Source: Escherichia coli (GTDB lineage Bacteria; Pseudomonadota; Gammaproteobacteria; Enterobacterales; Enterobacteriaceae). From it: a stretch of DNA of 64,000 nt. The stretch lies in assembly GCF_050920415.1 (NCBI RefSeq), contig NZ_CP169309.1. One strand, written 5' to 3'. Below the pieces are notes generated by a model. That model was not told the DNA's origin, did not search any database, and was given only the letters and a program-made list of their open reading frames with translations. Positions 44,168-50,148 of this stretch are shown here, piece by piece (within the stretch, counting starts at the first letter, position 1; the number at the start of each line of letters is the position of its first letter). A program made the translations under genes and the position numbers.

Positions 44168-44599
44168 GTCTGCGGCTTTTGTGATGCCTGAGAGAACACA
44201 ATGGCGATTGCCAGAGAGTCAAAAGTTGCAGGTGCTTGCAGACATGCCGTTACACTCTCTGGACTCTTCGTGGCTTAAAAATCGCAGAACCATCGGCTGA
44301 TACATTCTGAATAAGAATATCTACTCAATCTCCAGACTCCCCTACATAGAATGTGGAGATCGTGATACATATTGAGGTCTTAAACTTAAGATCACTCTAT
44401 TTTTGAATTAAATTCCTATACTCTTTAACCATCCATAAATATCACTTTATTAAATCTAATAAATTATTAACCACAATCAATACAGGTCAAATACTTATTT
44501 ATAATGTACTTATTAAAAACTAATGAGCGATTTTTGATAGTAATCACATATACTTTAAAATAAATTAATAAAAAAACTCATCAAATTCAAGGACTGATA

Positions 44600-46072
44600 A
44601 TGAAAGATGGTATATATACTTTGCCACATTATCTTTATAAATCAAATATAGCAGATAATGAAACAATAAAGGAAACAAGAAAAGACAATTCATTAAAAAT
44701 ATTATGCGAGTATAAAACAGAGTTAATTATTTTATTTGATGATTTTTTTAGAAGCCAACAGTTACCTAAAATATCTCCAGCACTTCATTTTTTATTTCAA
44801 CAGACTAATTTGATAGATGCGCATTTTTATAGATGTAAAGTCCAAGAACACACAATCCAACTTTCTTTTTTAAAAGACAAAAACATCACATTACTTAGAT
44901 TGGATGTTTTTGATGACGTCACAAGTGAATATATTACTGAAGATATTAAGATATCAGAAGATTGCCATGTCAAATTCCTTAAATTTTTAAAGACAAACTT
45001 CGATCAGGAAATATACGATCAGTTATATACTCCTGAAATATTTTATGAAGCCTGCAAAAAAGTTCAGTCATTTTATGATCATCAGGATACCTTGCTAAAC
45101 AGAAAATACAGAGAAATAGACAAGAAAAAAGGTTATCTTAGCAAGGAACTCAAAAAGCTAATTAAAATGAATACATACCCTGAGTTATACAATGGGCAAT
45201 ATCAAAAAATCCCTTACTTATCCATCGATGTTAACCAAGATATAACATGGCAGAATTTTAAAACTAGCAACACAGCATATTCACAGCTTTGTGAAAAATT
45301 ATCATCTTTTAAAATTACGACTAATCAATTAATACAAAAAACAGCTTGCTGCACAACTGAAAAAACGACCACCAATAAATTTAATGTTGTCTTTTCTTAC
45401 GACGGATATTATATAAAGGAATTCATACTTTTATTACCCTATAATAAATCCATGGAGATTTATGAACTTAACAAGCAAAAAATCCAGTACTTGACTGCTC
45501 CAAATATTAACATACATAAAATATTGCTATCAAACTTAACGATAGAAAAGAGCAACCTGACATATGGTTATTATTCCACTTGTATATTATCAAATATATC
45601 ATGCTTTGAAAGTGACTTATCAAACACAACCTTTTTCAATGGAGAAATAAATAATCTTTTCTTAAAAAAATGTAATATATTTGGAGTATTCTTCATTAAA
45701 ACAAAAATAAAAAACCTTCTCTGTGAAGATATTATGCCTGTTCGATGGACCACTCAACTTGTCAATAAGTACTTAGGTAACATATATACAGGAGTATTCA
45801 AAACACTGGGAAGTATTGATGACAAAGCGTCTCGTTTCGAAATTTTGATTCCATTGGTTCAAACATTAGTTCGCGACAATGTAACGCTAAATAATGATGT
45901 GTATCAAGAATTGACTAAGTATATGCACGATTACGACAAAACATCTCCGGAAATGAGTAAATACCTTCAGAGCATCAATGAAAGTATGTTCCTTATGACA
46001 AACATCCCTCATCAGGATCCCCCCCCAAAGAAAGATGTTATTCAGAATAAAATTACATCTGATGCATATTAA
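44600..46072 (+). CDS. Hypothetical 490-aa AT-rich protein; candidate pentapeptide-repeat / type III effector-like protein
   Basis: Lys/Asn/Ile-rich ORF with no N-terminal signal peptide; residues about 300-360 (LSNLTIEKSNLTYGYYSTCILSNISCFESDLSNTTFFNGEINNLFLKKCNIFGVFF) show roughly 5-residue periodicity of hydrophobic positions. Family assignment is inference. Confidence 0.6.
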   Translation: MKDGIYTLPHYLYKSNIADNETIKETRKDNSLKILCEYKTELIILFDDFFRSQQLPKISPALHFLFQQTNLIDAHFYRCKVQEHTIQLSFLKDKNITLLRLDVFDDVTSEYITEDIKISEDCHVKFLKFLKTNFDQEIYDQLYTPEIFYEACKKVQSFYDHQDTLLNRKYREIDKKKGYLSKELKKLIKMNTYPELYNGQYQKIPYLSIDVNQDITWQNFKTSNTAYSQLCEKLSSFKITTNQLIQKTACCTTEKTTTNKFNVVFSYDGYYIKEFILLLPYNKSMEIYELNKQKIQYLTAPNINIHKILLSNLTIEKSNLTYGYYSTCILSNISCFESDLSNTTFFNGEINNLFLKKCNIFGVFFIKTKIKNLLCEDIMPVRWTTQLVNKYLGNIYTGVFKTLGSIDDKASRFEILIPLVQTLVRDNVTLNNDVYQELTKYMHDYDKTSPEMSKYLQSINESMFLMTNIPHQDPPPKKDVIQNKITSDAY

Positions 46073-46315
46073 TTCACTGCAGAGAAATAAAAAAACCTGA
46101 AACATGCACTCAAATATCCTACTCTTCACTCTAATGAGTGAACCCCAGAACTTTTATAAAGAAGCGAGCAACGAAGAATATTAAACTTTCAACATTTCAT
46201 CAACTTCACATCAAAAATTTAAAAACTTAAACATTAATATAAATAGTAACAACCTGATCACATAATCAGGTTTGAAAATGAGCAACCTTCCATACTAGTC
46301 AATTAAGAATGATTT

Positions 46316-46849
46316 ATGAAAAAGTATATTATTCCGTTCGTGGCGACAACGTTGATATTCAGCGTAACAACCTTCGCCAAGGATATCGATCAAGGAACAC
46401 TAACCGTTAGAGGAGAAGTTGTTGATACAACGTGTTACTTTGTTAATGGTGATTCAACAACCGATATTGTTGTCGAAGATGTTGTAACCAGTGCAATGAA
46501 TCAACTTATTAATAATGAAATCTATACTTTAAAAACCGGTTCAACCGCTCATGACTTAGAAATTCAGTGTGATGGCAATACAGCACCAAATATCGAAGTA
46601 TTAGCCTCAGAGTTTGATGCTAATAACTTTACGTTGAATAAAGGAACTGCTGAAAACGTTGGCTTTGCCTTTTTCCTCGGTGATGGAAATATGACAAGAA
46701 TATTGCCAGGTGTAAAAACACCGCTGAAAGATAATGGTTCTGGACAATATTTTCTTAATTTAAATGCACAATATGAGCGTACAAGTACCGATCCTGTAAC
46801 AAAAGGCTCCGTGGAGTCAACCGTGACGATTAAAATCAGTGCAGATTAA
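46316..46849 (+). CDS. Fimbrial major subunit-like protein (chaperone-usher pilus)
   Basis: 177-aa ORF with signal peptide (MKKYIIPFVATTLIFSVTTFA), a conserved Cys pair and beta-rich composition; precedes the chaperone and usher genes. Confidence 0.7.
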   Translation: MKKYIIPFVATTLIFSVTTFAKDIDQGTLTVRGEVVDTTCYFVNGDSTTDIVVEDVVTSAMNQLINNEIYTLKTGSTAHDLEIQCDGNTAPNIEVLASEFDANNFTLNKGTAENVGFAFFLGDGNMTRILPGVKTPLKDNGSGQYFLNLNAQYERTSTDPVTKGSVESTVTIKISAD

Positions 46850-49139: not shown

Positions 49140-49151
49140 AAGGAGTTTACT

Positions 49152-50111
49152 ATGAAGAGGCTTTTATTGCTCTCCTTGAGTCTATATTCTTTTATTGTGC
49201 AAAGTGCTCCCTGTACACTGACCAATGTCGGTGAACAACGTGGAACTTACACTCTAAAACCACTTAATATGAAAGGTAATCTCGCTGTTGAAAAAATTGA
49301 AAACACTGGAAATATCATTGAGTGTGCGGATTTGCAAGATACGACCAACGCCATTAAAGTTCATTTTTTAACACTGAACGCCTTAAGGTTTAAAGTGGGG
49401 GGGCGTCATTATATTATTAATTTTCCTTTTGAATCTAACGGTAAAAAAATAGAACTACCCGGTAAATCATCTTATAATTTAGAAGAAATCTTATCTGCAA
49501 TAAATTTCACGATCCCATATTCTATTACTTCGTTGCCAGATAATTCTTACATCTCAGATATTTTTCCAGGGGCACCTTTTCCTTTGTTATTCGAAATTGA
49601 GGTGAGCTCATGCATAGGGAGTAATACTAATTGTAACAGCGTCCGCTTTAACTTTAATTTAAATACCATTTTACAGGTTAACTTAATGACTTGTGGTTTT
49701 GAAGACAAATCCATCGACACTGGACGATTTGTACTGTCTCGTATCAATAGTGAAAATTATCAGTTTCATCATATAAGATTTGACTGCATCCAGGGCGAGC
49801 AAGGTGAATTAGTTTTTGAACCCAGTGATGTTGAATATTACTTTGAGCCGGTGACGATACAGGAGTCAGGAACCAGCATATTAAAAAATGAGTTAGAAAA
49901 TAGTGAGGAAGGTGCTGGTCAAGTAGGCTTTCAACTATCGAATGATGGTACGAATGAAATTCTGTATGGCAAAAGCAATAGCTATGCTTTTCAGCATCCC
50001 CATGAAGGAAGTAATCAGATTCCTCTTTTTATTCGCCCGCGTACATATGGAAACAATGTCTCAAGCGGGCAAATAATGAGCCGAGTCAAGATTGTGGTTA
50101 TATACAACTAA
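49152..50111 (+). CDS. Fimbrial adhesin/tip-subunit-like protein
   Basis: 319-aa ORF with signal peptide (MKRLLLLSLSLYSFIVQSA) and a beta-strand C-terminus (RVKIVVIYN); size fits a two-domain adhesin. Inference only. Confidence 0.55.
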   Translation: MKRLLLLSLSLYSFIVQSAPCTLTNVGEQRGTYTLKPLNMKGNLAVEKIENTGNIIECADLQDTTNAIKVHFLTLNALRFKVGGRHYIINFPFESNGKKIELPGKSSYNLEEILSAINFTIPYSITSLPDNSYISDIFPGAPFPLLFEIEVSSCIGSNTNCNSVRFNFNLNTILQVNLMTCGFEDKSIDTGRFVLSRINSENYQFHHIRFDCIQGEQGELVFEPSDVEYYFEPVTIQESGTSILKNELENSEEGAGQVGFQLSNDGTNEILYGKSNSYAFQHPHEGSNQIPLFIRPRTYGNNVSSGQIMSRVKIVVIYN

Positions 50112-50148
50112 TCTATCTCCCCCGCCTTAACTTTGGGGGAGTTGCCGA

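Follow-up and report, generated by a model that had tools for sequence, protein, structure and literature searches.

We analyzed a 64,000-nucleotide stretch of the Escherichia coli contig NZ_CP169309.1, hereafter called the window, in which an island of low guanine-plus-cytosine (GC) content, carrying an EspX1-like gene and a set of fimbrial genes, lies between rpsT and nhaR. Based on the present data, the window is very probably chromosomal DNA of Escherichia cryptic clade I (C-I), with the island at 44171-50158 being the C-I allelic version of O-island 1, decayed and inherited within C-I. The original prediction, made from the sequence alone, had taken the gene order of this region as a sign of an O157:H7-like backbone, most of the accessory genes being known O-island content. 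Both the gene order (the same in O157:H7 strain Sakai for ECs0019-0025, ECs0052/0053 and ECs0061) and the O-island-type content (a homologue of O-island 1, and ccd and espY1 at their Sakai sites) were recognized correctly, whereas the backbone turned out to belong to a different lineage.

Comparison with reference genomes, which had been set beforehand as the test of the O157:H7 assignment, gave best matches in cryptic clade I. In a collection of 5,426 complete E. coli genomes, the closest match to the 64-kb window is the chromosome of MFDS1022581 (NZ_CP169399.1), a strain from animal-source food in South Korea, with 99.989% identity. The two sequences are separated by a single-base indel and six substitutions, of which four are synonymous, one changes fixC (R26C) and one is intergenic; the difference at codon 16 of dnaK (GTA/GTT) is synonymous. 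At four of the six substituted sites the allele of the window is absent from all other clade I genomes compared. Since there are only seven differences in 64 kb, the source of the window is a sister isolate or another assembly of the MFDS1022581 clone. Over the 19-kb backbone from caiA to rpsT, an identity clearly above 99% was found only for MFDS1022581 and N96, six further genomes reached about 98%, and none of the others among the 5,400-odd genomes exceeded 97.1%. A genome of any common phylogroup is expected to show hundreds of near-identical matches in such a collection; C-I is a rare lineage. Two of the genomes matching at about 98%, 2013C-4282 and EC42405, appear among the complete C-I genomes that Okuno et al. 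(2023, PMC10100065) list as true cryptic clade I, and the same paper ranks C-I as a subspecies-level sister lineage of E. coli sensu stricto.

Neighbour-joining trees were built from orthologues of up to 29 core genes of the window and 11 genomes, using one alignment of 17.8 kb (16 genes present in all taxa) and one of 29 kb (27 genes), each with 200 bootstraps. In both trees the window clusters with N96, 2013C-4282, EC42405, RMDEC465 and 2017-02-2CC in 200/200 bootstraps. The core genes of the window are 99.5-99.7% identical to those of N96 and 97.9-98.3% to those of the C-I genomes, compared with 96.4-96.5% for Sakai (phylogroup E) and MG1655 (A), 96.4-96.6% for IAI1 (B1) and SMS-3-5 (F), and 95.2-95.4% for CFT073 (B2). 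The core-gene comparison thus gave no special affinity of the window to O157:H7, and no O157 genome was found among the best backbone matches. To guard against local recombination, we also made use of a second locus, the 20.7-kb core region yejM-yeiP, which is located 2.6 Mb away in MFDS1022581. At this locus, 18 genomes including 2013C-4282 and EC42405 are at least 98.6% identical, and all others are at most 97.5% identical.

It is therefore extremely improbable that the window represents an O157:H7-like (phylogroup E) backbone with the O-islands of that lineage. This possibility is raised by the ccd module, espY1 and the fimbrial/EspX1 island, which are placed and ordered as in Sakai, and by the lack of the insertion sequences (IS) IS1 and IS186. 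However, the backbone is no closer to Sakai than to the A, B1 and F genomes and groups with clade I in every bootstrap replicate, the island shares 89.7% DNA identity and its EspX1 homologue 72% protein identity with the Sakai counterparts, and a second island with ompK and sulfatase genes is absent from O157. Moreover, each of the shared features is present in 22-38% of the 5,426 genomes, and for this reason they are not diagnostic of O157.

A further explanation would be that the source is an E. coli sensu stricto strain with a recombined clade I segment, so that the window misrepresents the genome. Large recombinant segments are known at this locus from E400634-type genomes, which gives this idea some substance. 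Nevertheless, the affinity to clade I extends over all tested genes, which span 45 kb, and MFDS1022581 displays the same affinity 2.6 Mb away, which makes such an import very improbable. The E400634-type genomes deserve a remark of their own. At fix/cai and yejM-yeiP they resemble clade I, but in E400634 the proteins encoded at 29210-49096, from lspA to mog, are identical to those of the B1 strain IAI1, the rpsT-nhaR island is of the B1 type, and the ompK-sulfatase island is lacking. This indicates that a segment of E. coli sensu stricto origin, 20 kb or more in length, was imported by recombination. We had considered E400634 as the best match of the backbone outside clade I (97.1%), and rejected this candidate, because the yejM-yeiP locus reveals a clade I genome with a B1-like segment.

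The rpsT-nhaR island is sharply delimited. Homology to the island-free locus of CFT073, where nhaR and rpsT are just 95 bp apart, ends at 44170 on the rpsT side and restarts within the 3' end of nhaR, at 50159, which sets the boundaries at 44170/44171 and 50158/50159. The GC content falls to 30-41% across 44,001-50,000 and amounts to 35.3% for the island, as compared to 52.8% for the upstream flank. The island with an effector-like gene that had been predicted here from the sequence alone, at 44168-50148, is thus present, and its coordinates were essentially exact. In other strains the site is variable: it is empty in CFT073, it holds glycoside hydrolase family 31 (GH31) and major facilitator superfamily (MFS) cargo in SMS-3-5, it is reduced in K-12 to an IS1A-truncated remnant with 264 bp from one end of the island and 175 bp from the other, and it contains a copy with a different internal deletion in IAI1. 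A full-length island occurs in 1,196 of the 5,426 genomes, which come from many sources. The allele of the window, however, is found at full length with at least 97.7% identity in only eight genomes, and those of the eight that have been typed belong to clade I. The architecture of the island is the same in the annotation of five other C-I-type genomes.

O-island 1 corresponds to z0020-z0025 of strain EDL933, with espX1 being Z0025, and to ECs0019-ECs0025 of Sakai. The island of the window occupies the same site, has the same order of genes (espX1, subunit, chaperone, usher and a terminal fimbrial-family gene), and is collinear over its whole length with Sakai 25484-17389. The DNA identity of 89.7% applies to 5.2 kb, and the last 2 kb are 92.4% identical. 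The two versions also differ in their lesions: the chaperone and usher genes are intact in Sakai and dead in the window, while the terminal gene is frameshifted in Sakai and intact in the window. The chaperone gene of the window carries a frameshift in an A-rich tract near 47166, where it is 2 nt shorter than its Sakai counterpart; in the other five clade I-type copies this site is short by 1 nt. The usher gene has three lesions: an 11-nt deletion at about 47931 shifts the frame, a TGA stop codon lies at 48195-48197, and 894 bp corresponding to Sakai 19398-20291 are deleted in frame at 49040/49041. This last deletion removes about 298 codons, roughly residues 487-784 of 816. Both the 894-bp deletion and the site of the chaperone frameshift are common to all six clade I-type copies (6/6), and it follows that the fimbrial machinery was inactivated once, in a C-I ancestor. 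The later lesions of the island are lineage-specific. As judged from the reading frames, the chaperone-usher operon would be unable to assemble fimbriae.

The closest known fimbrial systems are of the Yeh/Stc type. Among NCBIfam models, the subunit scores best with YehD (E = 5e-33), the chaperone with StcB and the usher with PRK15217, but all scores of the window are below the curated cut-offs, and Yeh/Stc-type fimbriae differ from the operon of the window in that the latter would be non-functional. The major subunit is 90.4% identical in amino acid sequence to ECs0024.

The window shares with the clade I genomes 2013C-4282, EC42405, MFDS1022581 and N96 an island allele that is 97.7-100% identical, the ancestral lesions and the island between nhaA and mokC; only strain-level differences, in the states of ccdB, the terminal gene of the island, caiE and ompK, separate the window from other C-I genomes. 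The island would thus have been inherited vertically within C-I rather than received from an O157-like donor. We considered a recent transfer from such a donor and rejected it in view of the low identity to Sakai and of the lesions that are common to clade I.

Some observations weigh against our interpretation. The test of clade membership covers two chromosomal regions, one spanning 45 kb in the window and one of 20.7 kb in a near-identical genome, and the 1,368-bp marker gene that Okuno et al. give as specific for C-I is located outside the window. In addition, the synonymous divergence (dS) from E. coli sensu stricto reaches 0.42 in the EspX1-like gene and 0.25-0.39 in the fimbrial genes, whereas that of the backbone is 0.14. 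This excess could reflect faster evolution of an AT-rich gene with low codon bias, or an ancient allelic replacement in which the C-I version of the island, or the sensu stricto version, was brought in from an unsampled Escherichia lineage. The latter would also be in keeping with the EspX1 protein identities, since C-I and sensu stricto share 71-73%, nearly as little as E. albertii and sensu stricto (68-70%), and with the uniformity of the EspX1-like gene within C-I (99.4-99.5% identity, dS about 0.01, versus a backbone dS of 0.06-0.07). However, AT-rich genes with little codon bias usually exceed core genes in dS, and the same protein identities fit the order of the species, sensu stricto and C-I being closer to each other and E. 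albertii standing further out. Moreover, no closer donor was found among 5.8 billion proteins. The low diversity within C-I is not exceptional either, as some backbone genes are also 99-100% identical there, several of them being as conserved as the EspX1-like gene, and for this reason we set aside the idea that it signals a selective sweep. Altogether, we regard an ancient replacement as rather unlikely, though conceivable. Such an event would qualify the term 'vertical' for the deep history of the island, but not for its inheritance within C-I.

The features of the window are compiled in Table 1.

Table 1. Positions of the rpsT-nhaR island, its genes and flanks, and of other accessory features in the window.
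Feature	Coordinates	Strand	Basis
Low-GC island at the rpsT-nhaR site (C-I allelic form of O-island 1)	44171..50158	+	GC content; comparison with CFT073 and SMS-3-5
rpsT, left flank	43851..44114	+	Annotation of near-identical record; 100% identical to Sakai
EspX1-family gene, 490 aa, pentapeptide-repeat type, intact	44600..46072	+	Homology to Sakai EspX1
Fimbrial major subunit, 177 aa, intact	46316..46849	+	Pfam Fimbrial, E = 1.6e-8
Periplasmic chaperone pseudogene	46900..47581	+	PapD_N and PapD_C split across two frames; frameshifted in RefSeq
Outer-membrane usher pseudogene	47594..49139	+	PapC_N and Usher domains in fragments
319-aa fimbrial-family protein (adhesin-like), intact	49152..50111	+	Weak Pfam Fimbrial match, residues 180-319
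nhaR, right flank	50149..51054	-	Open reading frame list and annotation
Second island (421-aa zinc-domain protein, sulfatase, frameshifted ompK)	52281..56640	-	Annotation
ccdA (intact) and ccdB (stop), between folA and apaH	13978..14528	-	Annotation; comparison with Sakai
espY1, 253 aa, intact form of K-12 yabP/yabQ, between rluA and djlA	5120..5881	-	RefSeq annotation

The EspX1-like protein is homologous over its full length to EspX1 (Z0025/ECs0025), a member of a pentapeptide-repeat family of type III secretion effectors, and its gene has the same genomic position. It is 72.1% identical to Sakai EspX1 (473 aa) over 473 residues (82.4% at the nucleotide level), has a C-terminal extension of 17 residues, and matches clusters of EspX1 proteins with E-values of 1e-210 to 1e-220; the identity to the sensu stricto clusters is 71-73%. 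A pentapeptide-repeat-like region is located at about residues 290-385, where residues 292-378 match the pentapeptide-repeat protein of PDB entry 2w7z (E = 4e-4). The Pfam Pentapeptide_4 match is weak (16.9 bits, under the cut-off of 38 bits), a scan of NCBIfam returned no model that matches the protein, and unlike EspX1 it is named 'hypothetical' or 'pentapeptide repeat-containing' at NCBI. The exact 490-aa protein is already present there on 79 contigs. The exact 177-aa and 319-aa proteins of the island are also public, with 79-108 contigs for the three proteins.

All six clade I-type copies of the EspX1-like gene have an intact reading frame (6/6), despite a DNA divergence of 18% from Sakai, and the ratio of non-synonymous (dN, 0.15) to synonymous divergence is 0.36. 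For these reasons, the gene is likely to be still functional, and we infer from the sequence that the protein keeps some function. The gene has remained intact and under purifying selection in C-I, where it is nearly invariant, while the adjoining fimbrial machinery decayed. Given its homology to EspX1, the protein would be a substrate of type III secretion. However, a survey of 465 C-I strains detected the eae gene in none of them. A function that is independent of the secretion system encoded by the locus of enterocyte effacement (LEE), for example via the E. coli type III secretion system 2 (ETT2) or in a role other than that of an effector, seems unlikely, though conceivable. As a side observation, a protein collection clustered at 90% identity places the EspX1-like protein among 1,329 members that are represented by a protein of 361 residues; another 361-aa member of this cluster bears the name EcfA2. 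The grouping seems to be an artefact of clustering, which probably explains why a full-length self-match of the EspX1-like protein is missing from the homology search.

The terminal gene of the island, which encodes the 319-aa protein and is referred to as orf319, is the counterpart of the frameshifted ECs0019 of Sakai. It contains a G7 tract at about 49396 and an A7 tract at about 49442, and in this region (49390-49450) the tract length differs between strains and switches the reading frame; Sakai, for instance, has A8 in place of the A7 of the window. The gene is intact in the window, 2013C-4282, EC42405 and IAI1, and broken in Sakai, N96, RMDEC465, 2017-02-2CC and E400634. The order of the locus tags and the distance of 1 kb from nhaR to the usher gene suggest that the frameshifted ECs0019 is equivalent to z0021/z0020. 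The gene z0021 is fmrA, which encodes a motility repressor of O157 and is reportedly the subject of a 2012 paper by Allison and colleagues. It follows that orf319 may be the undisrupted form of a gene whose 5' fragment in O157, presumably z0021, has been described as FmrA.

The other features that recall O157:H7 are the ccd module, espY1 and the absence of certain insertion sequences, all of which had been noted correctly in the original prediction. The ccd module is indeed located between folA and apaH, like the chromosomal ccd of O157:H7 (ECs0052/ECs0053), and CcdA, encoded at 14295-14528, is 100% identical to the Sakai protein. The ccdB gene (13978-14292) is 97.5% identical in DNA, but differs from that of O157:H7 in a premature stop at codon 37, so that of the toxin and antitoxin genes only the latter is intact in the window. 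An internal stop in ccdB is also annotated in N96. The module is not specific for O157, being found at a coverage of at least 80% in 2,021 of the 5,426 genomes, including the B2 strains CFT073 and NU14. The locus varies among clade I genomes: EC42405 and RMDEC465 have an intact ccdB, and 2013C-4282 and 2017-02-2CC retain only a remnant of it beside a gene annotated as 'pRiA4b ORF-3 / TnpR passenger'. The gene that had been predicted as an intact yabP is espY1, which is 88% identical in amino acids and 95.6% in nucleotides to ECs0061 of Sakai; K-12-type genomes have yabP/yabQ at the same place, and the espY1 region occurs in 2,076 of the 5,426 genomes. A fragment with an IS4/Tn5-type transposase DNA-binding domain (4925-5103) adjoins espY1, and its position is kept in O157 and K-12-type genomes. 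BLASTN searches with IS1A and IS186A of K-12 gave no match in the window.

A second island, which was not mentioned in the original prediction, lies between nhaA and mokC. It comprises about 4.3 kb with 41% GC, and its zinc-domain protein is of the IS1/IS1595 type. The supposition that the islands of this region are all found in O157 does not hold for this one: it is absent from Sakai, MG1655 and IAI1, Sakai having mokC alone at this place, and in O157 genomes coverage of the query is limited to 16%, which corresponds to mokC and the flanks. It is present in CFT073, in SMS-3-5 and in all genomes with the clade I island allele that were compared, and at a coverage of at least 80% in 1,271 of the 5,426 genomes. 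The ompK gene of this island is frameshifted in a tract at 55762-55772, which reads A1C9 in the window and A1C8 in the RefSeq record of MFDS1022581; this C-run is the sole indel between the two sequences. The tract is AAAAAAGCCCC in the other clade I genomes and CFT073, and A6C5 in SMS-3-5, both being 11 nt long. The difference may reflect true hypervariability of the run or an error in sequencing a homopolymer.

Several further observations concern the surrounding backbone. The rihC gene (36739-37653) is 91.6-92.4% identical to its counterparts in phylogroups A, B1, B2 and E but 97.6% identical to that of SMS-3-5, and nhaR of CFT073 is merely 85% identical to nhaR of the window (50149-51054); these cases look like local allelic replacements around variable sites. 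In EC42405, the whole yaaU-fix-cai block between kefF and carB is missing, a small YgdI/YgdR lipoprotein gene being present instead (EC42405 5090-5555), and an additional XAC2610-related gene is found between rihC and ispH. The caiE gene (29548-30137) is annotated as frameshifted in the MFDS1022581 record, with which the window is identical there, and is intact in other clade I genomes. Among RNA elements, Rfam matches above the gathering score were obtained for the sok antitoxin RNA at 56644-56796, adjoining mokC/hokC, for the small RNA ES003 at 35343-35395, upstream of carA, and for tpke11 at 58181-58258, upstream of dnaJ.

All of the content described here is already known, as the genome is in RefSeq and clade I, O-island 1, EspX1, EspY1 and the chromosomal ccd have been described. 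C-I is of public-health interest as a source of strains producing Shiga toxin and enterotoxin (PMC10100065), traits on which nothing in the window bears. The likeness of its gene order to O157:H7 would reflect that O-island 1, ccd and espY1 are old, widespread and variably kept segments of the Escherichia chromosome rather than markers of O157, and their frequency in several phylogroups makes the gene order at ccd, espY1 and rpsT-nhaR unusable for inferring E. coli lineages. Cryptic clade I, and not O157:H7, is the background against which other findings from this window need to be interpreted. This alters which lesions are informative: those of the chaperone and usher genes are ancestral to the clade, the ccdB stop is common to the window and N96, and the frameshifts in caiE and ompK and the intact orf319 are strain-level states. 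The rpsT-nhaR island would then be an O-island 1 homologue, the C-I allelic version at a variable site, in which a C-I ancestor lost the chaperone-usher function, leaving the EspX1-family gene, the gene of the major subunit and, in this strain, orf319 intact.

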